From NCBI GenBank assembly GCA_903834925.1, contig CAILLA010000305.1, positions 7,115 to 71,114 on the forward strand: DNA of 64,000 nt. Direction: 5' to 3'. A program made the position numbers and the translations under genes. Positions 9,931 through 62,040 of this stretch are shown here, piece after piece (within the stretch, counting starts at the first letter, position 1; each line of letters begins with the position of its first letter). The stretch comes from an uncultured Schlesneria sp. (GTDB lineage: Bacteria > Planctomycetota > Planctomycetia > Planctomycetales > Planctomycetaceae). The notes beneath the pieces were generated by a model. That model searched no databases, was not told where the DNA came from, and saw only the letters and a list, made by a program, of their open reading frames with translations.

Positions 9931-9948
9931 TCAGTTTACTATCGACGA

Positions 9949-11220: not shown

Positions 11221-11254
11221 TCTTAATGGGTGCGGCCACCTTATTGCTGACTCC

Positions 11255-11764: not shown

Positions 11765-12056
11765 ATTCGGCGATTCCCCTAAAATCGGTGACCGTGTGCA
11801 GATGGTGGATAGGGTGATGATGCTCGTTGTCTGCGATACAAGATGACAGGAAAACATCCCAAAATTCCCTGATCGGAACAACTGTGCGTCAGGTGCGCAA
11901 CGCTCGCCGAAGGTGCGCAACCGTGGCTGACCTGAATTCGTTTCGGAAATAGAGTGCAACTGACAATCTTAGGAGTGACTAGGGGCGGTTGGAACGGTAT
12001 TCTTTGATTGATCGCCGATTTCGTCCTGAGGGACTGTTTTACGGGAAAAGAGACTG

Positions 12057-27765: not shown

Positions 27766-27849
27766 GCCGATGTGGCGGAACTGGCAGACGCGCTGGATTC
27801 AAAATCCAGTGTCCTACAAGACGTGTGGGTTCGAGTCCCACCATCGGCA
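27766..27849 (+). tRNA. tRNA-Leu (anticodon CAA)
   Basis: Manual cloverleaf: acceptor GCCGATG/CATCGGC plus discriminator A, D-arm GCG-GAACTGGCAGA-CGC, anticodon arm CTGGA-TTCAAAA-TCCAG, long variable arm (GTC-CTACAA-GAC) and T-arm GTGGG-TTCGAGT-CCCAC. Confidence 0.9.
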
Positions 27850-27865
27850 CTCATACTGCGAAAGG
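27796..27865 (+). repeat. attL: direct repeat made of the tRNA-Leu 3' part plus ~14 bp downstream
   Basis: GATTCAAAATCCAGTGTC, then a 6-nt variable loop, then GACGTGTGGGTTCGAGTCCCACCATCGGCACT, then (C)ATACTGCGAA.GG. It matches 61972-62040. Confidence 0.85.
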
Positions 27866-27909: not shown

Positions 27910-27936
27910 GAGTTCTACACCGAGTTCTACATTTTT
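27910..27936 (+). promoter_or_regulatory. tandem GAGTTCTACA motifs (candidate integrase arm-type sites), left end
   Basis: GAGTTCTACAccGAGTTCTACATTTTT. A near-identical pair lies at 61848-61873. Confidence 0.5.
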
Positions 27937-34741: not shown

Positions 34742-35835
34742 GCTGTTTTAGTACCTCGTCGTTGGATGATCTGGAGTTTCCTGGAAAACTCGTTCGGAAA
34801 ATGAGCTTTCAGGAATGCAGCCTGATAGGTCGACACAGCCTCTGCCAAATGATGACTCATGCAGGCGGCTCGTGTTGCCGCATCCCAAATCCTTTCGAAG
34901 AGTCTACTTGCCTCAGGTTCATTAACGCCATTCCCGACAGCCTGGACAATAAACCAATCTTTCGTCGTTGTAGCCTGCTCCCATTGCCGTCTAGCGACTG
35001 CTTTGATGAAGGAATAGGCGTCGGTCATGGGGATGTCTGCTACTCGATTCATGATTAGCATGATTTGTTCTTGAAACAGGATCAGTCCCCGTGTTTCATG
35101 AAGCATCTCTGTAGCACAACAGCCCTCTGACAACTGGCCTTTTCTCTTGGAACCTCGGTAGATGTATTCGTCTAAAATCCCCGCTTCATGAATTTTACCA
35201 AGTTGAATTCCTGTGATCGCAGCAATATCAGTGAGACAGCTTGGCTTTAAAACAGGAAGGAGACTTCGAATTGAGTCTCCTTCACATTGGCTGATTCCTT
35301 CGACATCTCGGGATTGGAGTATTTCAAACGCAGCCGCGTCATTCAAAGGGATTGACGTCAGATCAAAGTCTGAATCTGTTTGTCGGATTTCCTGGGCCAC
35401 AAGGCAGGGTATCGCAGACAGAGAAGTGGACTGCTGGAAATTAACGACATCACAAGAGGCTTCCTCCAGCATTGCTTCGAAGTCTTCTTCAGACCCGTTC
35501 GTATGCGAATTTGCATCAAACCTGAATTTAATGGTTCCAGTAGAATTTGCTTGCAGAAATCGCTCGTAGGGCAACCCGTGCTCTGTTGGATCAACTCCAG
35601 AGAAATTCATCAGATATGAAATCAGTGAACAGCATCCGGCCCCCGTCAGACGGCAGGAAACACCCTGAGCCTTCAGTTGTTGGACTTTCTCGCTTGCATT
35701 TTCAAAAGCACCAATTTGGCCATTTGTCTTCACCGTATCCAGTTCCTGACGTAATCGTTCAGCTACGAAGGGACGGTCCTTGCCGTTGAACATGATCGTC
35801 AAGCGTTCTTGGCAGAGCTGCCGAAGTTGATTCAT
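34738..35835 (-). CDS. truncated DnaE (DNA polymerase III alpha)-like protein, probably catalytically inactive
   Basis: Colinear similarity to internal DnaE segments (GAGCCSLISYLMNFSGVDPTEHGLPYERFL; LFQEQIMLIMNRVA; MSHHLAEAVSTYQAAFLKAHFPNEF). It has no PHP domain and no C-terminal clamp/tau/OB regions. The catalytic PDFDVDF position reads IKFRFDA. Confidence 0.7.
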   Translation of the reverse strand: MNQLRQLCQERLTIMFNGKDRPFVAERLRQELDTVKTNGQIGAFENASEKVQQLKAQGVSCRLTGAGCCSLISYLMNFSGVDPTEHGLPYERFLQANSTGTIKFRFDANSHTNGSEEDFEAMLEEASCDVVNFQQSTSLSAIPCLVAQEIRQTDSDFDLTSIPLNDAAAFEILQSRDVEGISQCEGDSIRSLLPVLKPSCLTDIAAITGIQLGKIHEAGILDEYIYRGSKRKGQLSEGCCATEMLHETRGLILFQEQIMLIMNRVADIPMTDAYSFIKAVARRQWEQATTTKDWFIVQAVGNGVNEPEASRLFERIWDAATRAACMSHHLAEAVSTYQAAFLKAHFPNEFSRKLQIIQRRGTKTA

Positions 35836-39546: not shown

Positions 39547-42159
39547 CTATGTGCCTCTCATTGTCTCATCAAGGCCCGCCTGAAGTTTCTTGATATCCAA
39601 TGGCGTCTCGATTTCCGGTTGAATTAACACCCACTTTACCAGTCCCTCTGCCGCACCTTTATCCAAAAACACGTAGCCTTCTGGGCCCTCATCTTTCATG
39701 ACATGAGCGAGGCGTCCGCTTAGCCAGTTTCGTCTCTTAAAAAACTCATCTTCGTGCAGTCGTACATTGTCGTAAAGTTCAGTCAGGAATTCCTGCAGCA
39801 TAAAAACCAGCTTAACTTCGGAATGGTCGGCTCCAAGGCGATGATCACGCCGAAGAAATTGTCCGCAAGACTTCATCACCGTTTCTGAAACGCGGTTAGT
39901 GATAATCACATGGCCGTTAAGGGTGTTTCCCTGCACTTGAAGCCATGGTTGAGCAAGGAGTGCCTCGACATAGTCGAACATCTTTCGCTTTTCCGAAGCA
40001 TTCAAATCATAACCTTCACCCTTACTAGAAAGCTTTGAATCGTAACTCCAATTGTGCTTCTGCGATTCTCGGAGTCTACCATTTGCTAGGTACACTATGC
40101 TGCAAAAACCGTCTGGGCGGCTTCCACCGCCCCAACGCTCCACATGCGGACAAAGGCTGCGTATCAGGTTGAATACATCCTGTTCATATGCCGTACCGGA
40201 GTAATCGTCCGGCAAATTCTTCAAGACATCTCTTGATGATCTGGCAGCTCGGAAAACTCGCTCCTGCTTTCTCTGGAATACTCCATTGATAGCCACCGTT
40301 AAATCGTCATTGAATCGCTTTTTCGTTACGCCGTCTCCAGAAGCAGCTAAAGCGTATCCCAAGCCAAGATGAGCGACACCGGCAACGTCTAAGTGTGCAG
40401 TTTCGACATGACCTCCTGTGTGAACGACGAGGACAGGAAGCATCGATCGGTCGATCAGTTTCAACAAAGATGGGTTAACGCGTGGCGTGAAATGAACTTG
40501 AACCTGCTGATCAACGTTACCTTGACCTTGAAGTGGGTACATTTCGTGTTCTTCAAAGCTACTTGGAGTACTCCGTAATCTCCATCCAGCGGCATCTTTG
40601 ATAATTTTTGCGGTTTCCTTGATAATTGCCTTTGGGACTTGTTCAAGGAACTTGACTTTCAAAGTCTTTACGTTGCCGCCACATTTTGGACATTCGTCAA
40701 TAGTTTCATCTTCAATGAGCTTCTGACAAAATGCCCCTGCACACTGTCGAATCTGATCTTCCCGTACTTTGATGACTCCAATTGCAAGCAACTTTCCCAA
40801 TATTTCCTTCTGGAAATCTGGCACTTTGTCTAGACGGTCAATCTCCAGCAAATTGTTGAGGATGTCTACGCTTCCCATTGGGAGCTTTGTTGGATCAATT
40901 GGACTCCCCAAAGGAATCCCGAATTGTCTCCTGAATTCATCTTCAATTGTCGAACACTCGGCTGAACTTAAGCCGGTGTCGTCCATACGGAAACGAACTA
41001 CGCCGGTTTGGTCGACATCCACATGAACTAAAAACGTTTTGTCTGAAGTGCGGAATTTCAAACTTTTGAGATCGGCAAGTGATCGGACACGGACTGTCTC
41101 ACGCTCTTTGAGCCACATTAAGTCTCGCCTAATTGACTGTCCGTCGAATGCGGATTCGATCATTATGGGAGCGTGGCATGGTCCCATACTACGGCGGAAT
41201 GCGATCCCAATGATGTCGAGCTTGGAGTCGTTTTCATACTCACCCAGAAGCTTTGACTCAACGTCACCTGGATCATAATCAGTGAAGAGCTGCTCTGGGT
41301 CTGGATTCAATGGGAGTTTTGAACGAGTCAGCAGCCAGTTAGAAACAACCTCGACAACACGCTTGTCACCAGCTTTAATTTCAATGCGTGGTGGCTGGTC
41401 TCTAAACCCAATCATTACCCACCCAAAGGTCGTGAAGTGGGCAAACACCTGGTGAAAATCGGCTGTAAGAGATGGGGCATTTTCTCGCTCCAAAAACAAT
41501 ACCGTGAAGCCGTTTTCAAGCCTTTCTTTTGCCTTAAAACGAACTGTCCGATTATCCGAAAGGCTAGACAGGTCATTGGCAAGGTCATTTATTGATTCTT
41601 CAACTACTCGTATTTCGTCATCGCTCAATGCACGAGTTATCGGAAGATGGGATACGGTTGGACGGCTTCTCCAAAGACTTCGCAAATATACTCGTTTAAG
41701 AGAGGATGGGCTGGCATTAAATAGCAGCAGAAGCTGCGTGAATTGGCGTAGTTTACCACGGCTCGCTCCTGATTCGCGGAGCAGTGACTGAAGTTTTCGT
41801 TTGTCTGCATCAGAGAAGATTCGATCGAATTCTTCCTTGAGGCTTTCCCCTTTTCTACGAAGAAACTCTGCCAGGAAAGTAAAGGTCTCATTTTCGCAAG
41901 ACGACAATAGCAGGTTAGTCAATTGCTCATGGGTGGCATTCTTCTCTGTGGAGAGTTTCGCTTTTTCACAGAGAAGACGAATGTTCGCGGTGGGGCATTT
42001 GGAAAGTCGGTGCTTAGCCCTGTGGTAAGCTTTCAGATCACCATCAGGTCGTAGTTGTAACCGGATAGCCACTGGAAAGACGCCCAAACTTTCCCAAAAT
42101 GAGTCGGACTGTCTGCAGAGAAATAGTGATGAAGCGTCTTGAACCAACATAGTCTTCAT
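39547..42159 (-). CDS. large protein with a C-terminal FokI-type restriction-endonuclease cleavage domain, a central Zn-ribbon and an N-terminus of unknown function
   Basis: WGGGSRPDGF...WSYDSKLSSKGEGYDLNASEKRKMFDYVEAL parallels FokI GGSRKPDGA...VDTKAYSGGYNLPIGQADEMQRYVEEN (FokI recalled from memory). CPKCGGNV lies mid-protein. Confidence 0.65.
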   Translation of the reverse strand: MKTMLVQDASSLFLCRQSDSFWESLGVFPVAIRLQLRPDGDLKAYHRAKHRLSKCPTANIRLLCEKAKLSTEKNATHEQLTNLLLSSCENETFTFLAEFLRRKGESLKEEFDRIFSDADKRKLQSLLRESGASRGKLRQFTQLLLLFNASPSSLKRVYLRSLWRSRPTVSHLPITRALSDDEIRVVEESINDLANDLSSLSDNRTVRFKAKERLENGFTVLFLERENAPSLTADFHQVFAHFTTFGWVMIGFRDQPPRIEIKAGDKRVVEVVSNWLLTRSKLPLNPDPEQLFTDYDPGDVESKLLGEYENDSKLDIIGIAFRRSMGPCHAPIMIESAFDGQSIRRDLMWLKERETVRVRSLADLKSLKFRTSDKTFLVHVDVDQTGVVRFRMDDTGLSSAECSTIEDEFRRQFGIPLGSPIDPTKLPMGSVDILNNLLEIDRLDKVPDFQKEILGKLLAIGVIKVREDQIRQCAGAFCQKLIEDETIDECPKCGGNVKTLKVKFLEQVPKAIIKETAKIIKDAAGWRLRSTPSSFEEHEMYPLQGQGNVDQQVQVHFTPRVNPSLLKLIDRSMLPVLVVHTGGHVETAHLDVAGVAHLGLGYALAASGDGVTKKRFNDDLTVAINGVFQRKQERVFRAARSSRDVLKNLPDDYSGTAYEQDVFNLIRSLCPHVERWGGGSRPDGFCSIVYLANGRLRESQKHNWSYDSKLSSKGEGYDLNASEKRKMFDYVEALLAQPWLQVQGNTLNGHVIITNRVSETVMKSCGQFLRRDHRLGADHSEVKLVFMLQEFLTELYDNVRLHEDEFFKRRNWLSGRLAHVMKDEGPEGYVFLDKGAAEGLVKWVLIQPEIETPLDIKKLQAGLDETMRGT

Positions 42160-42249: not shown

Positions 42250-42798
42250 TCATCCGGCCACCTCGTTGATATCGGAAAAACCGAGGTCCTGATCCTTTGA
42301 TTTTGGCTTGAGGGTTGCCAAAGAGCCTGCTTTCCGCCGATTGATCATTTCGGCAGCAAGGATCATCGAAGGCACAATTCGCCCAGACCTCTTCCCAAAC
42401 TCCTGCTGGAGCTTCGTTGCCAAATCAACATTGAGGGCGAAGTTGTCAGATGCAATTTGAAGTTCTTCATGGATTGAGTCTAGATGACTCAATTCTTCTT
42501 CGGAGAACTCTAGTCGGGGCCGGATGAATTCTCCTCCAGCTTCACGGCCAAGCTTTTCCCACTTGCCCTTTTTCCTTCGTGTAATCATGTAATGAAGAAC
42601 ATCGGGACCTGACTCATTTCTGGCCGTCAGATTATTCCAACTCGTGACCAAATGAATCAAATCCTCAGGTCGCTGAGGATATTGGTCCGTAGGAATGTTT
42701 AACTCCCGGTACAGTGTTCGCAAAACCTCATCCTCGTGAGGCAGCATCCGTAAAGTACGGCGTGTTTGAGGCATACAGCCTGTCCTCCAAATTGACAA
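42250..42798 (-). CDS. hypothetical protein
   Basis: 182-aa ORF between the XRE-ImmA regulator and the FokI-like gene, in the same orientation with short gaps. Confidence 0.5.
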   Translation of the reverse strand: MSIWRTGCMPQTRRTLRMLPHEDEVLRTLYRELNIPTDQYPQRPEDLIHLVTSWNNLTARNESGPDVLHYMITRRKKGKWEKLGREAGGEFIRPRLEFSEEELSHLDSIHEELQIASDNFALNVDLATKLQQEFGKRSGRIVPSMILAAEMINRRKAGSLATLKPKSKDQDLGFSDINEVAG

Positions 42799-42825
42799 AC
42801 TTTCCCACGGAATTGGCTCCCTCCG

Positions 42826-43968
42826 TTATCGTGGAAATCTAATGGTTTCAGCCCCTTCGTCCTCAGAGGCACAATCACCAGGAACTCCCATCGCTTGATT
42901 GAGGCGTTCCCGAATAGCTTCAGGCCGAACCCCGGCCAAATCGGATACTTCTTTCAATGACATTTTACCTGTTGCAATTGCTTCATCAATCAACTGCTCA
43001 AACCTGGTTGCTCTATCCGGGCGGATAGTCCCTGGCTCATTACTCTTCCACCCACGACGGGCAAACTCTATCCAGAGAGATTTGGCTTCAGGCTTAGTTA
43101 TGAACCCAAGTTTTTCCGCCCTGTATACCATTGCTGCTAAGGAAATCCCGAATTTCTCTTTAAACTGCACAAGGCGGATCATTGATTTGCCGGTAAACGC
43201 CTTTTTGAGCTGGTTGTTGGGTAGAAGCAGATGTGATCCGAAATCAAAAGCTCTGGATTCAATCAACTTGTCCTCAGCTTCGTCGTGATCACAGTCTCCG
43301 TAGAGTACATGAGCCAACTCATGGGCAGCATTTAGTCGCACTCTATCATTTGATACTGTCGGGTTCAAAACCACGACATATTCCCCTGAATATCTTGCTG
43401 CAAGTCCATCAATTCTCAGTTCTGTGGGCTCTTCAAAGACACGAATTCCAAACCCCTCCAAGACTTCGACGATATTTGGAACCGGCTCCTCAATCGATAT
43501 TCCCAGCGTTTCTCGAACGGCTCGACTCAATGCTTCAGGATCAAGTCGTGGAACGGATTTAATCTTCCCTGCCGTGGCTCGAAGGGGCTTCTTGAGCCGC
43601 ACCTCAACTGCCACATAGGCGTCAATCCATCGCTGCACATTCGCTTCAAACTGATGCAGGTCTCCTGCCTTTACCTTGGACTTTAGATTGCGATACCTCA
43701 CACCTTTGAGGGTTTCACCACGTTCCAGAAACCAGTTAAGTGGTCGGTCATACGTTTCCGCCAGAGCCGCCAAAACGTCCATTGGAGGAACTGATTTTCC
43801 AGCCTCATAGTTTGCGATGGTTGCATGAGAAATAGGAAATCGTTCACTTAACCGATCGGCTACCGCCCTTGTTGACATCTTTGTTGATGTACGAGCAGTC
43901 TTGAGCTTGTTTGCAAGAGATTCCCGCACATCTGCGGCTCCTGACATTCGAATTATGGGGATTCCCAT
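42826..43968 (-). CDS. XRE-family HTH fused to an ImmA/IrrE (COG2856) metallopeptidase
   Basis: HTH (LKTARTSTKMSTRAVADRLSERFPISHATIANYEAGKSVP) and a zinc-peptidase HEXXH motif (AAHELAHVLYG). Confidence 0.85.
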   Translation of the reverse strand: MGIPIIRMSGAADVRESLANKLKTARTSTKMSTRAVADRLSERFPISHATIANYEAGKSVPPMDVLAALAETYDRPLNWFLERGETLKGVRYRNLKSKVKAGDLHQFEANVQRWIDAYVAVEVRLKKPLRATAGKIKSVPRLDPEALSRAVRETLGISIEEPVPNIVEVLEGFGIRVFEEPTELRIDGLAARYSGEYVVVLNPTVSNDRVRLNAAHELAHVLYGDCDHDEAEDKLIESRAFDFGSHLLLPNNQLKKAFTGKSMIRLVQFKEKFGISLAAMVYRAEKLGFITKPEAKSLWIEFARRGWKSNEPGTIRPDRATRFEQLIDEAIATGKMSLKEVSDLAGVRPEAIRERLNQAMGVPGDCASEDEGAETIRFPR

Positions 43969-44229: not shown

Positions 44230-44589
44230 TCAAATTCCGAAGAAGTCTTTGCACGTTTTCATCACCACCGCTTTGAGGATTTCAAACGGAACAGATGCAG
44301 ACTTCTCTTTCAATGTGGAAATCGCCTTATTCCAGACGGTGTCATTTCTGGCAGCGTCTAAAAACTCGTGGCCAGCCCATGTCAGAGACCTCGGTACCCA
44401 AGAAGATTCTGAGAAATCAGAGAGGTCAGTGGCATCCAGTAAACCAGCATCGTGAAGCATTTTGACGTGGTAACTGACCAGACTGGGATTTCTGCTTGGA
44501 AGATTGATGTTGACCCACTCATCTGGGGCTTGATCTGATTTTTCTACAGCGAGCAAAATCTCTCTTACGAGCTCTAGGTCTCGCTTCAT
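44230..44589 (-). CDS. DUF2513-like winged-helix protein
   Basis: MKRDLELVREILLAVEK...VSYHVKMLHDAGLLDA...LTWAGHEFLDAARN. The start overlaps the hsdS stop. Confidence 0.65.
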   Translation of the reverse strand: MKRDLELVREILLAVEKSDQAPDEWVNINLPSRNPSLVSYHVKMLHDAGLLDATDLSDFSESSWVPRSLTWAGHEFLDAARNDTVWNKAISTLKEKSASVPFEILKAVVMKTCKDFFGI

Positions 44590-45713
44590 TGGCCTCCTCC
44601 AGATTCTTGCTGGTTGAATATTTGGTTAATGATGGCTGGTAACAGGGCTTGCGTCTCAGCAGCAGCAGCCGTCAGGAGTTCACGGGCCGCTTCAACTTTC
44701 TCAAATAACTCCCCGAACCATATCTGTTCCTTATAAGCAGGAACCGGGGTCGGAACTTCGAGCAACACTTTGGCACTAGTTGTTCTATTGCGGTCCGCAC
44801 TTCCAGGCGACGCTTGACCTACGTGGTGTAGTCCTTCGGACGTGAGGAGAAAGAAACAAATAAAGCGGGATGTGGCTACACCGGAGAGTGGAACGTAAGT
44901 CAAGTACCGATGCGAACCGTATCGACTATCGTCTTCAGGCTTGGCCACGGCAATCGCCCCCTCCCAAGCCTTGATGTTGCTAATAAGGATATCTCCGGCA
45001 TGCACAAGTTGGGGTCTTTCCCAAGTGATATCGCATCCTTGTAGCGGTGGGTTGTGAAATGTCCCCTTTCCAAAGGATCTGACGGAGACCCCCGGGTATT
45101 CAGTAAATGGGTCAACCAAAACTGGTCGCCTAACAAGTGGAGCAACATCTCCCAATCGATGGCGATCAGCATCTCGTACAATTCGATTGTACGCAGAAAG
45201 AAGCATCCCTTGGAAATGTTCGCCAATTTCATTCAACCGCGTGTTTGCCGCTTGAATTTTGAGACTCAATTCGTCGAGGTATTCTACCACTTGCTTTTGT
45301 TTGGCCAATGATGGAAGGCTGACATGAACATTTGCGATGTCTCGTTCTTTGAGGGAGACGTTTGCAGTGCCTTTCATTAATGGAACAAACAGGGAGTCCT
45401 TCTTTGCCAGAAGCAAGTAATAGAGATACTTTGCATCACACCTTTGGTTATCTTTGGTTTGAAGGGCCACCAGGAGGTCTGCCAACGCAAATTTGCCATC
45501 CTGATAGTGAATACGATGAAGAGCAGCGTCACCGTGGCCAGTTGACGAAACCAGCGGAATACAGACTGTAGGCCCTTCAAGCTGATAAGTACTTGAAGTC
45601 CGTCGGTAGGCTGCAGTAACGACGAGTGGGTATGCCCCAACCTCCGTCTTGAGCGTTGGTGATTCACCTCGAACCAAGTGACAGAGGTCCCCAAGTCGAA
45701 AGCTTTGAGTCAT
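44586..45713 (-). CDS. hsdS: type I restriction-modification specificity subunit
   Basis: Two target-recognition halves separated by a conserved coiled spacer (LPSLAKQKQVVEYLDEL...; VPAYKEQIWFGELFEKV...). It has 4-nt overlaps with both hsdM and the DUF2513 gene. Confidence 0.85.
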   Translation of the reverse strand: MTQSFRLGDLCHLVRGESPTLKTEVGAYPLVVTAAYRRTSSTYQLEGPTVCIPLVSSTGHGDAALHRIHYQDGKFALADLLVALQTKDNQRCDAKYLYYLLLAKKDSLFVPLMKGTANVSLKERDIANVHVSLPSLAKQKQVVEYLDELSLKIQAANTRLNEIGEHFQGMLLSAYNRIVRDADRHRLGDVAPLVRRPVLVDPFTEYPGVSVRSFGKGTFHNPPLQGCDITWERPQLVHAGDILISNIKAWEGAIAVAKPEDDSRYGSHRYLTYVPLSGVATSRFICFFLLTSEGLHHVGQASPGSADRNRTTSAKVLLEVPTPVPAYKEQIWFGELFEKVEAARELLTAAAAETQALLPAIINQIFNQQESGGGQ

Positions 45714-47251
45714 GGCTTCCTCCCCAAAAGATCTTTGATTTCCTGCAAAATCTCTGCAAGTTGGAATTCTTTTCTGAGGATATCTTCTATCAGTTGTTCA
45801 GGCGGCAAATGATCTATGTCGGACTTTGCGTTCGGGTTCTTGATGTCCAGATTGCAGTTCGTTTCAAGAATTTGTTTCGCCGGAATGTTCCAAGCTTGTT
45901 CTGTGACTTTTCGTTTCCCCCACCACTTGAGGCAGCCTGCGAACTCTTCGAACTGGACGGGTTGTGTCTTTGTATATTGTCGCCGCCCTTCAGGCAGGGG
46001 TTGCTCATAAAACCAGACATGCTTCGTTGGTCCAGTCCGATCAAAGAATAACAAGTTGGTGGGAATGCTCGTATAGGGAGCAAAGACTCCATTTGGCAGT
46101 CTGACGATCGTGTGGAGATTGAACCTCGTCAGTAATTCTTGCTTTATTCGTGCACATACTCCTTCAGCGAAGAGAACGCCGTTAGGAACAACTACTGCCG
46201 CTCGACCTGGTTTCGGAGTAGCTCTCAGCTTACGCATGATGAGTTGCATGAAAAGAAGAGCGGTTTCTGAAGTCTGTTTGTCTTCAGCGAAATTCCCTTG
46301 AATTCCTTTTTCTTCCTCGCCCCCAAATGGAGGATTGGTCAGAATCACATCTACCCTGTCGTGTTCGTTGATATCAGTAAGTTTCTGAGAAAGACTATTT
46401 CCCTTGACGATTTGCGGCGACTCCAGCCCATGCAGAAGCAGATTCATCTGACAAAGCATGTAGGGCAGTGTTTTTGCTTCGTTCCCGTAGATACTTCGCT
46501 CTTGAAGGAGTCGTCGGTCTTGAACCGTATTGCATTGCTTCTCCATGTGCCTGAATGCTTCCACCAGAAACCCCCCGGTTCCACATGCCGGGTCAAGAAC
46601 GGTTTCTCCCAATTGTGGATTCATGACTTCCACCATGAAACGAACTACGGCCCTGGGAGTGTAGAATTCCCCCGAGTCCCCGGCTGCATCCCTCATCTCC
46701 TTGAGCATGCTCTCGTAAAGATGGCCCAGAGTGTGGATTTCTTCCGTGGAGTCAAAGTGAATGGCTCCAATCTTGTTAATCACGTCCCTCAGCAGGTAGC
46801 CGCTGTCCATGCGGTTCGTGACCCCTGAGAAAACAGAAGCCACCACATCTCGACGGTCATCTCCGTTACCACCCTGAAGACTTCTGAGGTATGCAATCAA
46901 CCCCTGGCCCTTGGTTCCATCAGGCAGGGTGGCTTCATCGTTGTTGATGAAGTGCTTCAGAACATCACCACTGATGCCATCTTCTTTCGCAGCCCAGTCA
47001 CGCCATCTGTATGGTGATTCGATGACCGGCCTAAACTTCTGTCGTTTCAGTTTGGCTCGTTCTTCTTCAATTCGTTCCTGATCGTCCAGAAACTTCAGGA
47101 ACATCACCCACGTCAGCATGGGTAGTCGGTCCAGGTCACCGTTAAGCCCCTTATCCTTCCGCATGATGTCACGTGCAGACTTGACGAGACTCCCAAGTCG
47201 TTGGGCTGTCGTGAGCGGTTGGTCTGTCTTCTTTACTGCCTTCTTGGCCAT
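45710..47251 (-). CDS. hsdM: type I restriction-modification N6-adenine DNA methyltransferase subunit
   Basis: HsdM N-terminal region (RDIMRKDKGLNGDLDRLPMLTWVMFLKFLDD), FYTPRAVVRFMVEVMNP, DPACGTGGFL and ILTNPPFGG. Confidence 0.92.
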   Translation of the reverse strand: MAKKAVKKTDQPLTTAQRLGSLVKSARDIMRKDKGLNGDLDRLPMLTWVMFLKFLDDQERIEEERAKLKRQKFRPVIESPYRWRDWAAKEDGISGDVLKHFINNDEATLPDGTKGQGLIAYLRSLQGGNGDDRRDVVASVFSGVTNRMDSGYLLRDVINKIGAIHFDSTEEIHTLGHLYESMLKEMRDAAGDSGEFYTPRAVVRFMVEVMNPQLGETVLDPACGTGGFLVEAFRHMEKQCNTVQDRRLLQERSIYGNEAKTLPYMLCQMNLLLHGLESPQIVKGNSLSQKLTDINEHDRVDVILTNPPFGGEEEKGIQGNFAEDKQTSETALLFMQLIMRKLRATPKPGRAAVVVPNGVLFAEGVCARIKQELLTRFNLHTIVRLPNGVFAPYTSIPTNLLFFDRTGPTKHVWFYEQPLPEGRRQYTKTQPVQFEEFAGCLKWWGKRKVTEQAWNIPAKQILETNCNLDIKNPNAKSDIDHLPPEQLIEDILRKEFQLAEILQEIKDLLGRKP

Positions 47252-47367
47252 CTTTTTGTTCTATCGTATAAACCACGTTTGACCCACACACCTGTCTCGG
47301 CCGAATTAACCAATAAAGTGCACTTTAATTTACTCACCGGTCGACCATTTACATCCACAACACCCCC

Positions 47368-49119
47368 TCAGCTATTGTTCGCATTTAGAAGCGTCTCCAA
47401 TTCTTCAGGATGAATGTCTATTGGCATCTCATAGGTCACGCCTCCAATGACAAGGGGTACGTATGCGTCAGACCCTGATGAAAGTTTCTGTTGCCATTTC
47501 CGTGAACGACATGAGTTCCATATTGTTTGAGGCGATTGAAGATGACGCTGTCTAAGCCTATCCTCGAAAGTGATCAGTGAAATCGCAGGGACAGTCTCTG
47601 CCGCATAGTTTCCACTCGGCTCTGAATCGGGCATCAGCACAATCCCGAAATACTCGTCGACCAGTTCCCATCTAACAAACTTAAACATTTCACGCTTTTG
47701 TTCCACAGACATGCCCCGAAGGATCCTTTCACACAAGAGCACCTGCTGCTTCCCAACCTCTGCCTCCTTTGTTGTCGACTCAATTTCGTTCATGTCATCC
47801 GCCGCAATCACACACTTCGCTTGTACCAAGAGGACCTGTGTGGGCACGGAGTCTCGGTAGGCTAACAAATCTAATTCTGAGCATTCGTTCCCGGCATACA
47901 TTTGAACATTGGTCTTGAATGCGTATTTGGCATTCTTTTGGATATGGAGGCCGAATCTGAGTAAAAGCCTCTTCTCCCGTGTGCCATTAAGAGTCGCACC
48001 CAAATTCCTCGTCGAACGGTTCCTACACAACGCTTTAAGGACATTTCTAGGCTGCCGGCTCAGCGAGACTACTAATGGGGACCAAATGTAATCGTTTTGC
48101 ATCGTGAATAGTGGCCGTAAGAACACATCTCCTTTGATATCTCTCTGGTCGTAAGTCAAAAAGCTTGTGATCTTCTGAACAATCTCGGCACTGAGTTTCG
48201 TGTGCGTCACCATAGCATCAAGAAAGCCCCTTCCCGAGACGACCTGAGTCGGCATGCACTCAGACTGAGGCACCTTTTCTTCAAACAATCTCAAATACAA
48301 TCTCATCGCTACATTAGACCAACCCAGGAGTACTCTCCAATAACATGTAAAGTCTGAATAGCTGAAGCCACCGAGGTCGCTCGTAGGTTCCAAGTCAACA
48401 ACGTCAGGCTGCTCAACCGATGCAGATGCATCTAATACCGCTTCACTCAAATACGGAAGTATACTGGTATGATGAATTCTTCCCCTACTTAACACCGGCT
48501 CGATTGTGGCTACGGTATCTGCGATGTAACGCAGCGAACCATCGTTTTCGTTGGATAACATTCCCTTCTGCCTGTGATGAACCAAGTCGGCAAAGTGCAG
48601 GTGAGCACCCGTCCTCTTTAAGGAAGGTCGTAAGAAGCGGATTGTCCTTTTGGACCTGTCGGCCTGAACTTCAAACAATCCTTTTCCGAACCCCACGTGC
48701 AGTAATTCCAACTGAGCGTATGCTGTTGCATGGGAATGGAACTGACCTGCTAGATTGAGTTGTTCCCCTGTAATTGAGTTGATCGTCTTTTGTGCAAGTC
48801 GCCCGGCTAGCCATCGGATTGAGATGGTCAGCCCCTCGTTCCTTGAATGTAAGTACTGCCATACCCCAACTGAGCCCAACGTCGGCTGTACAATCCGCAT
48901 TACGATGGCCATTCCATCGAACGCAGTTAGGAGACTCAAGAGAAGTGTGTCTGGATCGATTGACCATGCTGGTAAGTGAGTATGGAATGGATCAAGAACA
49001 GTGGTCTCCATCTCACGAAGAAAGGCATGTGCCTCCTCTCCTGACAGGGGAAGAGATTCAGGGGCGATTAATATATCTTTTCTTAGAGGCATTTTACATC
49101 TGGCATTTTTGAGCAGCAA
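47368..49119 (-). CDS. hypothetical 583-aa protein embedded in the type I R-M operon (possible PD-(D/E)xK-like motif near the C-terminus)
   Basis: Long ORF between the RES gene and hsdM. SELDLLAYRDSVPTQVLLVQAKCV gives a D...Q-x-K pattern. No family recognised. Confidence 0.6.
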   Translation of the reverse strand: MLLKNARCKMPLRKDILIAPESLPLSGEEAHAFLREMETTVLDPFHTHLPAWSIDPDTLLLSLLTAFDGMAIVMRIVQPTLGSVGVWQYLHSRNEGLTISIRWLAGRLAQKTINSITGEQLNLAGQFHSHATAYAQLELLHVGFGKGLFEVQADRSKRTIRFLRPSLKRTGAHLHFADLVHHRQKGMLSNENDGSLRYIADTVATIEPVLSRGRIHHTSILPYLSEAVLDASASVEQPDVVDLEPTSDLGGFSYSDFTCYWRVLLGWSNVAMRLYLRLFEEKVPQSECMPTQVVSGRGFLDAMVTHTKLSAEIVQKITSFLTYDQRDIKGDVFLRPLFTMQNDYIWSPLVVSLSRQPRNVLKALCRNRSTRNLGATLNGTREKRLLLRFGLHIQKNAKYAFKTNVQMYAGNECSELDLLAYRDSVPTQVLLVQAKCVIAADDMNEIESTTKEAEVGKQQVLLCERILRGMSVEQKREMFKFVRWELVDEYFGIVLMPDSEPSGNYAAETVPAISLITFEDRLRQRHLQSPQTIWNSCRSRKWQQKLSSGSDAYVPLVIGGVTYEMPIDIHPEELETLLNANNS

Positions 49120-49195
49120 AGAAAGCGGGTAACTCAGCCAAAAATAGTCATTGGCTCACTTCGCAGTATTAAAACTGCCGCGTTCATTCGAAATA

Positions 49196-50323
49196 TCAGG
49201 GAAGTACTTGCCCTTCGTTGTTGGCTGCATTTCTCCATGCATCAAAGACGAGTTTGTTGAGTTTAGACTGAACCCTTCCAAATTCAGTATTTGCATAGGG
49301 TTCCTTAATGCCTTCAACAAACTCGAAGTCGTAATTCCAAATCTGAGTGCCCCCAGCACCAGCGTTTATCGCACTGAGCAACTGCCAGTTGTGCGGTGTC
49401 GTCATCCGAAGTCGCATTCGGAGATGGTGGCATCGTCCTTCAGAGGCGATATTGCGTGCTGGGAATACTAGGTTGCATGGGGACAGTGGATTGTCAGTGG
49501 TCACTGCGTTCACGTGGGTCGAGAAATAGCAGATCCCGTCGTAATCGTCTTGCTTTGTGATCCACTGAAGTACGATCTGTGGGATTATGTATTCAGGCTT
49601 ATATGGAGCCTGCGGGTACTTAACGATGATGGAACACAAAGCAACTAGTGGCCACAGAATCAAAAAAGAGGTCAGAAGCTCTCGAATTTCCGGCTGGTCA
49701 GGTAACTGTCCGTCGGGGGACGTGTAGAAGAACAACCTCTTTGGACGATTTGACAAGTTCAGAATTGTGATCTTGTGGTCCTTGTCCAGCCAGAAGGCTG
49801 ACGCGTGAAGCTCATGAAAAGGAGGGCGACCCATCTCTGCCCAGCAAGTAAAAAGAGAGCCACCAAGGTAGATGCACGGCAGGCCTGGGATACTGTACCT
49901 TTGGGTGGCAACGAGGTGCCGCTTCTCAAACGGTATATGGAAAAGGTCTTCTCTTGTCAGTGGACTCTTGAGCTCGCGTCGGACGCGGTACATAAGTCCA
50001 AGCTCACTGTGAGCGAGGCCCTTGAGAGCGTGTTTCGCTACAATATCTCTCAGAGGCTCGATTCCCTCAACGAAACTCTGGTAAGCATCCTGAGGGTGTC
50101 CTGCGAATGTCGCTCGAACAATCTCAGGAGCTTTGCTACAGAACGTCTCAATGTCCTTCCGCCTTGCACTCACAGCAGACGCTACGTCGTGCGGGTCGGA
50201 AAAGCTGTCAAGCAGAGTGGTATATCTGCTTAGCAGTGATTCCACGAAGCCCTGGAAATCATCCGAATTCCGAGTTATTGGGAGCTGGAGAGAAGGATGC
50301 TCAAGCAATTCACGTATATTCAA
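49196..50323 (-). CDS. RES-domain protein (NAD+-targeting toxin family) with an N-terminal extension
   Basis: TQRYSIPGLPCIYLGGSLFTCWAEM (Arg and Glu of RES) and GICYFSTH (Ser). It starts 14 bp after the hsdR stop. Confidence 0.7.
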   Translation of the reverse strand: MNIRELLEHPSLQLPITRNSDDFQGFVESLLSRYTTLLDSFSDPHDVASAVSARRKDIETFCSKAPEIVRATFAGHPQDAYQSFVEGIEPLRDIVAKHALKGLAHSELGLMYRVRRELKSPLTREDLFHIPFEKRHLVATQRYSIPGLPCIYLGGSLFTCWAEMGRPPFHELHASAFWLDKDHKITILNLSNRPKRLFFYTSPDGQLPDQPEIRELLTSFLILWPLVALCSIIVKYPQAPYKPEYIIPQIVLQWITKQDDYDGICYFSTHVNAVTTDNPLSPCNLVFPARNIASEGRCHHLRMRLRMTTPHNWQLLSAINAGAGGTQIWNYDFEFVEGIKEPYANTEFGRVQSKLNKLVFDAWRNAANNEGQVLP

Positions 50324-50336
50324 GGGAGTGTCCTAT

Positions 50337-52703
50337 TTAGGCGGCGTAGAGAAGTTGCTGAAGACGACCCACGGCTTCAAGAAGCTTATCAGGTCCACCA
50401 AACTTGCTCGCAATTTCGACCACATTCCCATGAGTAGAGAGTGGAGGAACTTCCAGGACATCTGGAACTGAGAACTGGCTCGTTCCGTGCTCAGCGTACT
50501 TGTCCAGAAGCTCATCGAGGATCGTCTTGGCTTCAAGTCCGAATTGATCAAAGAAGTCGACCTTTTCACTTCGTAATTTCTCAGCCCTTTGCTTGCGTGT
50601 CAGTAGTGGTGCATTGAACGCCAGATGGCAGAGGAGGTCGAAGGGATCAGCTTCCGGGTGGCCAGCCTGGGCACAGAGTTCTTGGAAATCGATCCCTCGG
50701 TCTTCCAGCATTTGGACTACAGCAGACCTCTGATCAAAGTCAGACCATTGTTTCCGCAGGTCTTCAGGGCTGGTATAGAGCGTTTTTACCGTCTCTGCGA
50801 CGTATTGCGTGATTTGAACGGTTCGCAGCTTTGAACCGTCAGAGTCCAGATCCATTGTGACTTCGGTATCAATTCCACCGGGTCCACCGTGGGCATAGAA
50901 TTTTCGTGGCTCCGTTGTTTCGTCATCAAAGTCTGGTTTGCTTGTTCCTTCTTCTGCTGGTGGTTTTTCTTCTTCTTCCACCACTTCGGAACCTTCAATT
51001 GTTTCACCAGCTTCGTCAATTGTCTCGGTAGTGGCGAGAGATGGCTCTCCATCGAAATCAGGGTCGGCGAACAGTCTCGTGGCTGATCCGGTGTAGTCCA
51101 GAATGTTGAAGAACAATTTGCCTTTTTCTTCACGAACCCGAGTTCCTCTCCCAATGATTTGCTTGAATTCAGACATTGCCCCTACGGTTCGCACCAGAAC
51201 CACGTTCTGACAGGTTGGGGCGTCAACTCCCGTTGTCAGCATCTGGGACGTAGTGAGGATCACAGGGTAAGGCTCCTCAGGGTCCTGAAATTTGCTGAGA
51301 AAGCCCCTACCGATCGAGCCTTCATCAGATGTGACTCTGGCCACGTATTCTTCGCCAAGGGGAAGATTTTGAACAATATCTGCATTCAGATTGTTCAACA
51401 CTCTTCGCATCTGGTCCGCATGTTCTTGATCCACACAGAAAACAATCGTTTTGGATAGACGGTTTGTTTTCTTCAGGAAGTCCGTCAGATGGCGTGCAAT
51501 AGCATCAGTACGAGCCTGAAGGGAAACCACACGCTCAAAATCCTTGGTGTGGTATTCCTCATCTGGGATCTCACGACCGTATTTGTCGAGCTGCCCTTTG
51601 GTGGGCCTCCAACCTGCTGCATCGAATGTTGTCAGAATCCGATGAACCCGATAGGGAGACAGGAATCCATCGGCAATTCCCTGCTTCAGGCTGTAAGTGT
51701 AGAGGGGGTTGCCAAAGTAGAGGTAGGAATCTCGATTGTCTTCTCGTAGTGGTGTGGCCGTCATTCCAAGTTGATAGGCCGGTTCAAAATATTCCAGGAT
51801 CTCCCGCCAGTTGCTTTCGTCTCTGGCACTCCCCCGGTGGCATTCATCCACCACGATCAGGTCAAAGAAATCAGGAGCATATTCACGGTAGAGCCCTGGT
51901 CTTTTTTCGTCCTTTGCAATCGCTTGGTAGATTGCAAAGTACATCTCTCGGCTCTTGATGGCCCCCCCCTCGATCTTCCATCGGGCATCTCCGAAGGGGG
52001 CGAAGTCCTTATCTTTTGGGTCGTCAACCAGGACATTCCGGTCTGCCAGAAACAGAATTCGAGGCTTTCGGGTTGCATCGGTATTGGCATTCCATCCGGC
52101 AGACCAAAGCTTCCAACAGATTTGAAAGGCCACCGTGGTCTTTCCGGTCCCTGTCGCAAGAGTCAGTAGACAACGTTTTTGACCAGTCAGGATTGCTTCG
52201 ATTGAACGATCGATGGCAATTCTCTGGTAGTACCGGGGAATCTTTTTCGGGTTGTAGAAGTCCGGGACCAGTCTGGCGTTGGCCACTTCTCCAGAGAGGC
52301 CTTGCCCTTGCTGGTATCGAAACCAGAGTTCTTCGGGAGTGGGAAACCGTTCGACCTCTTTCTCCTGGGAAGTGAAGTAGTCGAACTCGATGATGTCCCG
52401 GCCATTGGTGGCGTAAGCAAACTTGAGGCCCAGGATGGTGGCGTAATCCTTGGCCTGCTGAAGACCATCTCCCGCTGGTCGTTTGTCGGATTTCGCTTCC
52501 ACGACTGCCAAAGTGATGTCCCGGTTGTACCTCAGAAGGAAGTCGGAGAACTTCTTCTTGAGTCGACGTGGCTTCCCACCGGATACAATGATTCGTCCAT
52601 CGGTGAAGGAAGTCTGCTCGCTGTAGAAATGCTTGTCGCCATCCCAGCCGGATGATTCCAGCTTGGGACAGACCAGCTTTCGGCAGGTATCGGCTTCGTT
52701 CAT
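50337..52703 (-). CDS. hsdR: type I restriction endonuclease R subunit
   Basis: HSDR_N start (MNEADTCRKLVCPKLESSGW), helicase motifs LATGTGKT and VVDECHRGS, and an EcoEI-R-C-like tail. Confidence 0.92.
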   Translation of the reverse strand: MNEADTCRKLVCPKLESSGWDGDKHFYSEQTSFTDGRIIVSGGKPRRLKKKFSDFLLRYNRDITLAVVEAKSDKRPAGDGLQQAKDYATILGLKFAYATNGRDIIEFDYFTSQEKEVERFPTPEELWFRYQQGQGLSGEVANARLVPDFYNPKKIPRYYQRIAIDRSIEAILTGQKRCLLTLATGTGKTTVAFQICWKLWSAGWNANTDATRKPRILFLADRNVLVDDPKDKDFAPFGDARWKIEGGAIKSREMYFAIYQAIAKDEKRPGLYREYAPDFFDLIVVDECHRGSARDESNWREILEYFEPAYQLGMTATPLREDNRDSYLYFGNPLYTYSLKQGIADGFLSPYRVHRILTTFDAAGWRPTKGQLDKYGREIPDEEYHTKDFERVVSLQARTDAIARHLTDFLKKTNRLSKTIVFCVDQEHADQMRRVLNNLNADIVQNLPLGEEYVARVTSDEGSIGRGFLSKFQDPEEPYPVILTTSQMLTTGVDAPTCQNVVLVRTVGAMSEFKQIIGRGTRVREEKGKLFFNILDYTGSATRLFADPDFDGEPSLATTETIDEAGETIEGSEVVEEEEKPPAEEGTSKPDFDDETTEPRKFYAHGGPGGIDTEVTMDLDSDGSKLRTVQITQYVAETVKTLYTSPEDLRKQWSDFDQRSAVVQMLEDRGIDFQELCAQAGHPEADPFDLLCHLAFNAPLLTRKQRAEKLRSEKVDFFDQFGLEAKTILDELLDKYAEHGTSQFSVPDVLEVPPLSTHGNVVEIASKFGGPDKLLEAVGRLQQLLYAA

Positions 52704-52992
52704 GGATCAAGCTCACGATGTGTGGCTCGATCAACAACAAGGCTACTGACGTAGCCCCGGAATTCCTTCCGAATAAGCCTCCCTCTTTCCCTAAATCGAG
52801 CCCGCAGCAGGATAACGGGCAGTGCTCACATATTCCACACAGGTGAAGGATCATCAAAAGTATCATTGCCGTTCCATTTCCTGATCAGGAGAACTTGCCG
52901 GATACCTTTGCAGTTCAATTAAGCCACAAATTTCTTGGCAAACTTGGTACACGGTTTGAAACGGCTCGCTTCGGGGAATCTAGTTCATTATT

Positions 52993-55900
52993 TCAATCAA
53001 ATCTTCTCTCTTCCTCGTCTTCTGACCTCTCTACGGAATGACTCAGGCCCTCAATGTAATCTTGAAGCCAACGAACAACATTGTTGTTCTTTTCATTGGC
53101 AAGCCATTGTTGAGCTTCTTTCCGAAGATGTCGGTACATATCGCTGGGATTACCACACCAGCCGCGGCAATGGAATCGGCCGTGAATTGAACTCGCTATG
53201 TCGTCATTTGCGCCATACCGAGCAACAAAATCTCTCGTGAGTCTGCCCGCCGGTGTCATATCAAATGTTTGGGGAAGAGTTCGTGCCAACCATTGACCTC
53301 TTTTCTTCACATCACTATCGATCCAACTGAATAACAGCTCTGCAGGAAGGAACTGTATAGGCCCAGGGCTGTGATCGGTAATTCCCTTCAGATAACCATG
53401 TTCCAGCCAGGACTGAAGGCCGCGATTTCGATCGTCTTCTGTTTCTACAAATGCCTTCGTAATACACGAAAATGCCTGCTTAGGATCGGATTTAATCAAT
53501 TCCGTCAAAACAGTCTCTTGATTGCCGTCCAGATCCATCAATGTGGACCATTCCCGGCTGCCAACAACCAGCACTCGTTCAAACAATTCCCATTTGCGAT
53601 TCGGAAAACGCTCAATGAATCTTTTGGCCATTCTTGACCAGTAGAAGCAAACTTCATTTCTAATTCGCCGATCACCCATAGCTTCGCTGGTTAAGACTCG
53701 AAACAACAGATCTTCCGGCAGGTCGATCGGTGCCTCCTCATTTTCCATGGAAACGGTGTGACACATTTGTAGTGCATTACCCCAGGACGACGCTGTTCCC
53801 TGTTCCAATTGTACGGAAATCAATTCTTCAAAGACGATTGAAGAGAGCGTTCGCAATTGGCTTGCAAACCACCATCTTTCGAGCCTCTCAAAGCTGATCA
53901 TTCCTTTTCTGCACAGGTCAATTACCTTTGTTACCAGTTTATCTGAGATCCCTGAGGCAATCATTAGGTCAGAGATTCTCGGTGAGAGACTCTTCCTCTT
54001 TGCGAGTTTCAGCAGGTGCGATTCCCACTCTGAAGGATTGGATTGAAAAATCGCTGACAGATACCCGGCTAGAAACAAAACATCTTGACTATTCGCGTTT
54101 CTTTCTTGAGCTGAGACTAAAGTGGAAAGAAGTTTCCGTGTGGCATCTCTCTGGGCAATCCGGTAACCCAAGCCGTAAACAGAGTTCGAACTTTCTGAAA
54201 TAAGCCAGTCAACTTCAACAACAAGCAGTTTGGGTGTCTTCACAATCTGATCAGCAAGTTCATCCAATATGCGATACACTTTATCTACTGGCTTAAACTC
54301 GTGATCATGAAAATCATCCGAGGTGACGTGTTTGACATATCGCTTCAATCTGGACGAGAAAGTGTCACCTTCAAGACGATTGTAAATCTCTTTCATCGTT
54401 CCGATGACTTCAGGTGGCAGTTTGTCTGCTCGGTTCCTAAGTTCAATTTGAAGAAATCGAATTAAGCTTTTCGTGTCCGAAACTGAATCCTGTTCAATTA
54501 ACTGCAACGCGTTCATTACAGGTGTGATCAAACACGGAATTGTCAGGCCGGCATGACCAACCGCTAGGATAGCAGAATTCAAATGAACTCGATCTATATC
54601 CGGCCAGTTGGAATGAAGCTCCAAAAGGAGACCCCAGACACGCTGATAGGCATTCCAAAGTTCCTCGTAAGTCTTTGGCCACCAAAATTCAATTGTCCGT
54701 CGTAATCCTTGATGTTCTGGACCTACAAACCGCATGCCATCATGTATGGAAAGAGCAGAGACGCAGGCCTTCAGGCAAATTCGCCGTATTTCAGGACCAC
54801 CTGTCTCCAGGAATTCTTTCAGGACCTCAAAGCGAAGAGAAGGATCTGACTCCGTGGAAGCCATTCCGGGCGTGAGGTTGAATAAACTGCAAAATGTACC
54901 GGTGGCGTTGTTTGTGTTTTTGGCATTTTCTGCCTCAGCAAGTTTCAGCAACAAACTCACCGCTCCTTGGAAATGGTCTTTCCATACTGCAATACGTTCA
55001 AGTGCCCAGACAATGGATTGGCGTGCGTCGTCAAACCTTCTGAGTTGATCGACTGACATTGATCCTAAAGTACGTTGTAAACAGCGAAGAGTATGATGAG
55101 GGCAGGCCTCCGACAAAGATAGGATGAGATATCCGAGTTTGGGATCATCTGGAAAGAAGTTCTCAGGAATCAAGCCGCCTCTTCCCAATAATCGTTCAAC
55201 AGCTTTTTCGGCTGTTGCCGATTCGTGGGAATATTTCAGCATTTCAATAAACGATCTCCACAATGACTCGGGCATTCTCTCCATTATTTTTGAGATCTCA
55301 AATGTCGAGCCATGTGTGTCCCAGAACTCCTTGTTAAGAAAGATCTGGAACAATTTGGGCGTCAGATAGAGCGTCTTTCCACCTTGAATTATTCGGCGTT
55401 TCTTCAGGTAGTGAATCTCCGACTGGAAATCGTCCCAAGTCAGTCCCTCAATCAAACTGACAATGAACTTGGCTTCGTAAGCTAACTGATCCTGAAAGCC
55501 GAACTGCTGAAATAGGGAGATGTACCGAAGAATTTTCCGCCTGGTTTTAACTTGTTCGGATATTGCTGAATCGTATCCAGCAATGAAGCTATTCCAGACA
55601 GAAACAAATGTCGGTTCCTGCAAAAGGTCCGTATTCTTCAGCCGCAGATTTTCACCAAGCACATGAGCCACACGAGGGCTGCCTTCGCAGAACCAAGCCC
55701 ACCTTTTGGCATCATTCTCACCAATCTCATGGTCCATCAAAATCGACTGGATTGTCTCTGGGCTGACCGGCTCAATCTGTACAACGTGGGTTAGTTCATC
55801 ACGGGAATCTTCTGGCCCATGATCAATTGTGATCAGTTTAATCCGATCAGACCTTGATTTTAGCATGTTCCAAATCTCGGCACGGTCTGCACGTGGGCAT

Positions 55901-61971: not shown

Positions 61972-62040
61972 GATTCAAAATCCAGTGTCAGCAATGACGT
62001 GTGGGTTCGAGTCCCACCATCGGCACTATACTGCGAATGG
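61972..62040 (+). repeat. attR: partial tRNA-Leu 3' copy (not a functional tRNA)
   Basis: It matches 27796-27865 except for the 6-nt variable-arm loop, one 1-nt indel and one substitution. It lacks the acceptor 5' strand and the D-arm. Confidence 0.85.

Follow-up and report, generated by a model that had tools for sequence, protein, structure and literature searches.

A 64,000-nucleotide stretch of DNA from an uncultured Schlesneria sp. (contig CAILLA010000305.1, positions 7,115 to 71,114; hereafter the window) carries a type I restriction-modification (R-M) operon in which two further genes lie between hsdR and hsdM. One encodes a 375-amino acid protein with the motif block of RES toxins, termed RES-long here, and the other a 574-amino acid protein related to the nuclease that makes up the C-terminal half of the defence protein Upx. 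On balance, these are probably two independently mobile single-gene defence candidates lodged in a dynamic cargo site of the operon. The reading draws on what was observed of their insertion, their family memberships and motifs, their recurrent embedding, their independence of each other and the turnover of cargo at the site. A gene embedded in a type I R-M, Hma (helicase-methylase-ATPase) or BREX system is often itself a defence gene (Payne et al., bioRxiv 10.1101/2024.01.29.577857; TgvAB, PMC11411939), and the locus adds two candidate anti-phage genes to this already known pattern.

Six genes of one orientation fill positions 44230-52703 of the minus strand in the order hsdR (50337..52703, 788 amino acids, the first gene of the operon), RES-long (49196..50323, TTG start), the 574-amino acid gene (47368..49092, ATG start), hsdM (45710..47251, 513 amino acids), hsdS (44586..45713, 375 amino acids) and a DUF2513 gene (44230..44589, 119 amino acids). 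This order, and the 4-nucleotide overlaps of hsdM with hsdS and of hsdS with the DUF2513 gene, are as described in an earlier note on this DNA. The hsdR stop and the RES-long start are separated by 13 nucleotides, close to the 14 bp given previously, and gaps of 103 and 116 nucleotides follow on either side of the 574-amino acid gene. HsdR scored 1014.6 bits against NF046051, the EcoAI/FtnUII equivalog (cut-off 550), and also matched ResIII, Helicase_C and EcoEI_R_C (PF08463, 5.6e-26) of Pfam as well as PADLOC REase_I (1.5e-220). HsdM matched N6_Mtase (6.9e-69), HsdM_N and PADLOC MTase_I (7e-194), and HsdS matched Methylase_S and PADLOC Specificity_I (5.5e-56). By these profile matches the host operon is a type I R-M system of family IB with its cognate hsdM and hsdS. 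A terminator-like hairpin (52738..52759, minus strand) lies upstream of hsdR, between the operon and the preceding gene; the remaining minus-strand matches all fell within coding sequence (hsdM and the 574-amino acid gene), none between genes. Terminator-like matches overall were at the level of shuffled sequence, so that the scan is of chance-level value. A promoter scan found no informative sigma-70 sites (one site, with seven expected by chance). The G+C content is even over all six genes, and the two additional genes seem to share a transcript with the hsd genes.

Among annotated type IB loci, the closest are on Sphingobium, Vibrio, Rhizobium and Azotobacter plasmids and encode an HsdR 56-62% identical to that of the window; in these, hsdR abuts hsdM, at distances of -14 to 107 bp. 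The approximately 3 kb occupied by RES-long and the 574-amino acid gene therefore represents an insertion, and the earlier description of both as additions to an otherwise standard type I operon holds. A search around the cargo for insertion scars yielded chance-level repeats only and no flanking repeats. Among the loci compared, which are designated by L numbers, the junction was found empty; with RES only (L004, L005, L066, L067 and L071); with the nuclease only (L150 and L154, which lack RES and whose hsdR and hsdM are 75% and 70-72% identical to those of the window); with RES and the nuclease, as in the window; and with a DUF1889 gene, RES and a 315-amino acid gene (L167/L168). Frameshifts in the hsdR of L150 were considered as a sign of gene decay, and this was set aside, the contig name indicating 3x coverage. 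The L167/L168 locus shares its backbone with the window (hsdR 89%, hsdM 88% and DUF932 85% identical, with a DUF2513 gene after hsdS in both), and at its junction RES-long is 61% identical to that of the window while the unrelated 315-amino acid gene replaces the 574-amino acid gene. Since the backbone is 88-89% identical while the cargo is 61% identical or replaced outright, the hsdR-hsdM junction of EcoAI-type operons is a fast-turnover cargo site. In L167 the DUF1889 protein is encoded ahead of RES at 6974-7738 and the 315-amino acid protein after it at 9221-10168. A second cargo position exists in the same operon type: in the type IB locus of Azotobacter plasmid pAcX50c (L164), an annotated PDDEXK nuclease gene lies at 11200-12333, between hsdM and hsdS.

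The adjacency and common orientation of the two inserted genes could suggest one two-gene system, either a toxin with its neutraliser or a sensor with its effector, and the earlier note had allowed for RES-long acting with its neighbour. The gene following RES in L167 may also encode a nuclease, for an HKD-like string (HAKILLLNEKALIGSANAS) was spotted in it by eye; the motif has no profile support, and the protein matched nothing among PDB sequences. A joint system is nevertheless very hard to credit. No gene of the 574-amino acid family was present at any of approximately 145 other RES loci, RES was found in none of the nine other contexts of the 574-amino acid family, hsdM follows RES directly in the RES-only loci, and a backbone of 88-89% identity carries a different second gene. 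A functional pair was rejected on this lack of co-occurrence outside the window, which leaves two genes that come and go separately.

The assignment of RES-long to the RES family, made previously from the sequence, holds at the level of the family. Twenty-one of 29 diverse relatives matched Pfam RES (PF08808) at E ≤ 0.01, the best at 2.1e-6, and no other Pfam family was matched. The arginine, glutamate and serine residues pointed out earlier, R142 (TQRYS), E163 (CWAEM) and S268 (YFS), are present and invariant in these 29 relatives, as are R113 and Y152. Their spacing, R113-29-R142-10-Y152-11-E163, compares with R27-20-R47-11-Y58 in MbcT, and S268 falls within a vPS-like block. Alignment with hhalign of the RES-long family profile to a five-sequence profile of canonical RES proteins placed QRYSIP-GLPCIYLGGSLFTCWAEMGR on GRWNPPLLFPAIYLADSAQACMVEVER of MbcT (E=0.0019, probability 14%, 26 columns), and an E value of 0.012 was returned against MbcT alone; these comparisons amount to motif-level support. 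Full-length RES-long matched phrog_7835, a PHROG family of unassigned function, at 2.6e-64, and several members of the family are labelled RES domain-containing by the NCBI annotation pipeline PGAP. The TTG start agrees with the conserved N-terminus of the family, MNxxE/F.

The AlphaFold model of RES-long (predicted local distance difference test, pLDDT, 91; predicted template modelling score 0.90) consists of an N-terminal helical domain, a central alpha/beta core and a C-terminal extension. The helical domain spans residues 1-104 (50012..50323, minus strand), with helices at 23-40, 45-53, 55-73 and 77-97; the RES core with the five invariant residues spans 105-290 (49454..50011, minus strand), and the C-terminal extension, in which G296, C298, W313, Y343 and F348 are invariant, spans 291-375 (49199..49453, minus strand). 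An N-terminal extension had been put at approximately 130 amino acids; it measures about 105-110, and it is accompanied by a C-terminal extension of about 85 that had not been described. RES-long shares the conserved R...R...Y...E...S motif block with the toxins of the Xre-RES, MbcTA and NatRT systems (PF08808). Canonical RES toxins are about 160-230 amino acids long and, at the loci examined, follow an upstream MbcA, ParS or Xre antitoxin gene, whereas RES-long has about 375 amino acids, two extensions, no antitoxin and no detectable structural match to the RES toxins of solved structure. Fusion of RES to a mostly alpha-helical N-terminal domain of about 100 amino acids, in the context of conflict systems, has been described for HEPN/RES-NTD1 proteins (PMC3710099); identity of the RES-long N-terminus with that domain is unproven, and a search for it in the N-terminal domains of ten family members gave no Pfam match at E ≤ 10.

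The absence of an Xre/COG5642 antitoxin, remarked upon earlier, was borne out. No gene of that type (MbcA/ParS) occurs in the operon, hsdR ends 13 nucleotides upstream of RES-long, and there is no room for a small open reading frame (ORF) beside it. In the RES-only loci the gaps on both sides of the RES gene are shorter than 20 nucleotides, and a hidden antitoxin gene is excluded there for that reason. The idea that the N-terminus of RES-long is itself a fused antitoxin found no support, since hhalign detected no similarity between the family profile and MbcA-type antitoxins.

The RES-long family is large, with at least 320 matches in a word-indexed search, and its wider membership is mostly free of R-M. 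Among 56-58 loci from species-representative genomes, hsd genes were present in only two, the neighbours being a mixture of relaxases, McrC-like nucleases, a type IIG enzyme, integrases and ATPases. Members occur on plasmids of Bacillus, Paenibacillus and Chryseobacterium and in temperate phages, namely as yopC of SPbeta and, adjoining the integrase, in P2-like phages, with lysogeny genes nearby. In SPbeta (L166, 3402-5065), yopC lies downstream of yopB, which encodes a 75-amino acid helix-turn-helix (HTH) regulator; the arrangement is loosely Xre-RES-like, without a toxin-binding domain.

A different picture was obtained for the closest RES clade, defined as members at least 36% identical to the window protein. 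The earlier note had named, as grounds for refutation, homologues without any link to R-M; on the contrary, linkage to type I R-M was found in 12 of 16 informative contexts, on at least four different type I backbones. RES lies between a type IB hsdR and hsdM in seven loci (the window, L004, L005, L066, L067, L071 and L167/168). At L068 and L070, where the type I systems are of other kinds and their genes differently ordered, it occupies the 3' end, with other genes between RES and hsd, the HsdR of L068 being of the HSDR_N/T1RH-like_C type; at L096 it is 24 bp upstream of an HsdM gene whose product is 29% identical to that of the window; and in the planctomycete Anatilimnocola floriformis (L169) it lies on the downstream side of a helicase, an ABC-3C system and hsdS. 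At L072 an intact RES gene adjoins the 84 bp that are left of hsdM, next to BrxL. Four members (L003, L006, L007 and L014) lie among housekeeping-like genes without nearby R-M. Part of the R-M linkage of the clade may reflect shared island ancestry. The gene between the distant type I system of L070 and its RES-long gene (6686-7627) encodes a Peptidase_U49, of the Lit-like abortive-infection protease family.

This linkage bears on the comparison with PrrC drawn in the earlier note. In such an arrangement RES-long, possibly together with the nuclease, would be held latent on the HsdR2M2S complex, freed by anti-restriction proteins of the Ocr, Stp or ArdA type, and would kill through depletion of NAD+. 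The tight placement between hsdR and hsdM (gaps of 13-19 and -1 to 8 nucleotides), kept in the seven type IB loci, and the association of the clade with type I R-M, other type I families included, are what such a guard would show; with no antitoxin, some other factor must silence the toxin, and PrrC provides the precedent (reviewed in bioRxiv 10.1101/2024.01.29.577857). In common with PrrC in the EcoprrI type IC locus, RES-long is one effector gene nested among, and oriented like, type I hsd genes, and it might act as a second line of defence. PrrC, however, combines an ABC-ATPase with a HEPN tRNA nuclease, and its masking by EcoprrI has been demonstrated; both domains are absent from RES-long, which has a predicted NAD+ target and a place between the hsdR and hsdM genes of a type IB operon, and no likeness to the ABC-ATPase or HEPN parts of PrrC was found in Pfam, PADLOC or NCBIfam scans. 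PrrC is almost always embedded in R-M loci (bioRxiv 10.1101/2024.01.29.577857), whereas the RES-long family resides mostly on plasmids, in prophages and as solitary chromosomal genes. Within the closest clade, the intact RES gene of L072 has outlived its hsdM, four members have no R-M in their vicinity, and the partner R-M systems are 26-29% identical with different gene orders, genes intervening between RES and hsd in L068 and L070. A PrrC-like guard is thus unlikely, and less favoured than autonomous cargo. We regard as quite unlikely, too, a version confined to the R-M-linked clade, in which RES-long would be a latent NAD+-depleting effector that reads the state of the type I complex and is fired by phage anti-restriction proteins, with a third layer provided by the neighbouring gene of the junction (that of the Upx-like nuclease in the window, a different gene in L167). 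If true, such a protein would be a PrrC-like guard of different chemistry, reused over several type I families.

The second inserted gene had been described as a 583-amino acid unknown. It is a real, conserved gene by the evidence of its relatives, as is RES-long, although the 583-amino acid form uses an upstream TTG at 49119; the ATG at 49092 is most likely the start, because it agrees with how the gene is called on other contigs and with the alignment of homologues, and gives 574 amino acids. A full HMMER search of 1.84 billion representatives returned 865 matches at E ≤ 1e-3, 164 of them at E ≤ 1e-30, where word-indexed protein searches far under-reported the family with 9-12. Members range from about 540 to 610 amino acids, and many are full length at approximately 550. 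The protein matched no Pfam, NCBIfam or PHROG family, matched PADLOC only weakly (NERD, E 0.0033), and tblastn gave no match to plasmids or phages.

Its AlphaFold model (pLDDT 84) retrieved Upx (9wuf) as the top PDB match in Foldseek, at E 3.3e-7 with a probability of 1.0 over 606 aligned columns, followed by the PD-(D/E)xK domains of R2 RLE, AF1548 and Card1/Can2. The family profile, searched with hmmsearch against PDB sequences, matched 9wuf_A and nothing else (E 0.0026), and the alignment set ExDLLAY...LLV(E/Q)xK on D1161, E1176 and K1178, the catalytic residues of Upx (PMC13099982). The D...Q-x-K motif noticed earlier is thereby tied to the Upx catalytic core: the predicted PD-(D/E)xK nuclease core of the window protein, at residues 385-500 (47593..47940, minus strand), contains E406-x-D408 ... 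Q424-x-K426, a placement supported by the Upx alignment and the weak NERD match. D408 and K426 are invariant in 42 of 42 family members; at position 424, 31 of them have E and 11, the window protein among these, have Q. Experiments have established Upx as a defence nuclease that senses phage terminase (PMC13099982, PMC13601566), and its E1176A substitution abolished defence (PMC13601566). It has about 1270 amino acids in three domains, the N-terminal and middle domains being proposed as a terminase-binding sensor and a second nuclease, and its C-terminal domain, residues 715-1272, comprises 558 residues, the size of the family considered here (PMC13099982). The 574-amino acid protein has the homologous catalytic core but lacks the N-terminal and middle domains, carries Q for the essential E in the subclade of the window, belongs to a family often embedded in R-M or Hma operons, and was not recognised by the PADLOC model for Upx.

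Ten distinct contexts of the 574-amino acid family were found, and in six the gene is embedded in a type IB or Hma system. Three are the type IB hsdR-hsdM junctions of the window, L150 and L154. The other three are Hma-like helicase-methylase-ATPase systems (L002, L146 and L156), in which the gene stands immediately upstream of a DUF1156 methylase gene in L002 and L146, the contig ending at the gene in L156. The remaining four contexts are islands of defence or mobile genes: one with GmrSD and OLD, one near BrxL, one near CBASS and one that resembles a prophage and has an integrase beside the gene. L146 and L156 also share an embedded gene pair (4091-5805 and 4537-6278, respectively) encoding 221 and about 350-359 amino acids, the latter with a faint Lactamase_B match, right after an HTH-SNF2-NOV_C helicase, and both carry OLD-like or Ymh genes in addition to the 574-family gene. 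The genomic logic is that of the guilt-by-embedding sets (HEC-01 to HEC-09 and 145 PDCs), of TgvAB in a Vibrio cholerae type I R-M system and of the Rlo genes of Campylobacter jejuni, and the 574-amino acid family occurs in both embedding hosts, type I R-M and Hma. RES and Upx are absent from the guilt-by-embedding preprint (bioRxiv 10.1101/2024.01.29.577857).

Both genes might instead serve the island or the R-M cassette rather than the host cell, as addiction or post-segregational killing modules or as neutral hitchhikers with no anti-phage role. R-M systems themselves act as addiction modules, the RES-long family is carried by plasmids, prophages and islands, and canonical RES proteins are toxins of toxin-antitoxin systems (PMC11535050). 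Selfish stabilisation is distinctly improbable all the same: without an antitoxin gene or the space for one, single-gene addiction has no obvious mechanism, and the neighbours are overwhelmingly defence genes (RmrA-like, PD-Lambda-4-like, GmrSD, OLD, BrxL, CBASS and Lit-like U49). Moreover, the closest characterised relative of the nuclease is a proven defence protein (PMC13099982).

Several results weigh against two autonomous defence genes. Neither protein matched a model of PADLOC-DB v2.0.0, those of the HEC and PDC families included. The Q at an essential acidic position in the window subclade could mean that catalysis by the nuclease is altered, and linkage to R-M is so frequent in the closest RES clade that a real functional link with type I R-M has to be reckoned with. 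As to RES-long itself, its own Pfam RES match (residues 129-288, E=1e-4) scored 22.8 bits, just below the gathering cut-off of 23.2; the whole chain had no Foldseek match in the PDB at E ≤ 0.001, the best ADP-ribosyltransferase (ART) being 4xzj at E 3.7; the model matched nothing significantly in BFVD; and the family profile searched against PDB sequences retrieved coiled-coil noise only and no RES chain. It may be argued from the sub-threshold score, from the confinement of the hhalign similarity to a 26-residue block at low probability, and from the failure of both PDB searches to retrieve a RES or ART structure, that the RES label is misleading and that the motif block belongs to a protein of another fold or chemistry, such as an RNase, or of non-enzymatic role; RES was termed 'a potential RNase' by Anantharaman et al. 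2013 (PMC3710099). Such mislabelling appears rather improbable, given that RES was the sole Pfam family matched, by most of the diverse relatives and down to 2e-6, that four collinear motifs (YR, R, Y and E) have MbcT-like spacing with S268 in a vPS-like block, and that PGAP applies the same name to several members. At the sequence level the RES assignment is therefore upheld for the family, the ART-like fold and the NAD+ chemistry being putative.

For both cargo proteins we infer an enzymatic activity, a trigger and an anti-phage function, and for RES-long autoinhibition. RES-long would be an NAD+ consumer (an NADase, phosphorylase or ADP-ribosyltransferase) without a trans-acting antitoxin, probably held inactive by the helical domain at its own N-terminus and by its C-terminal extension until an infection cue is received, whereupon depletion of NAD+ would abort the infection. 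The 574-amino acid protein would be a single-module relative of the Upx C-terminal nuclease half, its large helical N-terminal region presumably sensing a phage component and DNA then being cut at the PD-(D/E/Q)xK site. Embedding would provide co-inheritance and co-expression with first-line R-M rather than obligatory physical control by it. If these predictions hold, the locus yields two new single-gene anti-phage candidates. A self-contained RES enzyme without an antitoxin could be tested in model organisms, its family being present in SPbeta (yopC) and P2-like prophages, and the 'half-Upx' nuclease could reveal the minimal Upx effector and the way in which it is equipped for sensing. The EcoAI-type hsdR-hsdM junction is a practical place for mining further defence genes, and a natural system for asking whether embedded effectors are merely co-inherited with restriction or functionally coupled to it.

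The R-M operon sits inside a genomic island of approximately 34 kb (window 27766-62027) at a tRNA-Leu(CAA) gene, which was the sole match in an Rfam scan. A 32-bp exact direct repeat marks both ends, one copy at the tRNA 3' end (27820..27851, plus strand) and the second at 61996..62027 (plus strand), and a tyrosine integrase gene (27927-29201) lies beside the tRNA. The G+C content of the island is 0.484, against 0.526 and 0.549 in its flanks. Megablast of the region against Escherichia coli genomes gave no match. The island backbone, consisting of DUF932, a WYL/WCX regulator, a DnaE fragment and a metallo-beta-lactamase hydrolase, recurs in A. floriformis (L169) and in L167.

Within the operon, the 4-nucleotide overlap of the DUF2513 gene (PF10711, 6.4e-28; phrog_585) with hsdS indicates translational coupling, and a 60% identical copy occupies the same place in L167/L168 (12837-13199 of L167); the gene may regularly accompany this R-M backbone. 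A literature search found nothing tying DUF2513 to restriction. Defence-like genes flank the operon on both sides. Immediately upstream, a 1349-amino acid protein (52993-57042, minus strand) with weak N-terminal HTH and AAA_16 matches resembles PADLOC PD-Lambda-4_A (6e-31) over residues 306-795 only. On the other side, at 42250-43968 (minus strand), an RmrA-like protein with HTH and M78 peptidase domains (PADLOC RmrA, 5.8e-43; NCBIfam spr1629 family) precedes a 182-amino acid ORF that matched nothing in any library; the two may form a RosmerTA-like pair with an unrecognised toxin. Between this pair and DUF932 lies an 870-amino acid ORF (39547-42159, minus strand) belonging to no Pfam or PHROG family, which has a counterpart of 880 amino acids, 33% identical, in the same position in L167/L168. 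A 365-amino acid DNA polymerase III alpha-like fragment, comprising the finger and NTPase domains only, is encoded beside an HTH-WYL-WCX regulator at 33680-35835 (minus strand), and this pair is kept in L169.

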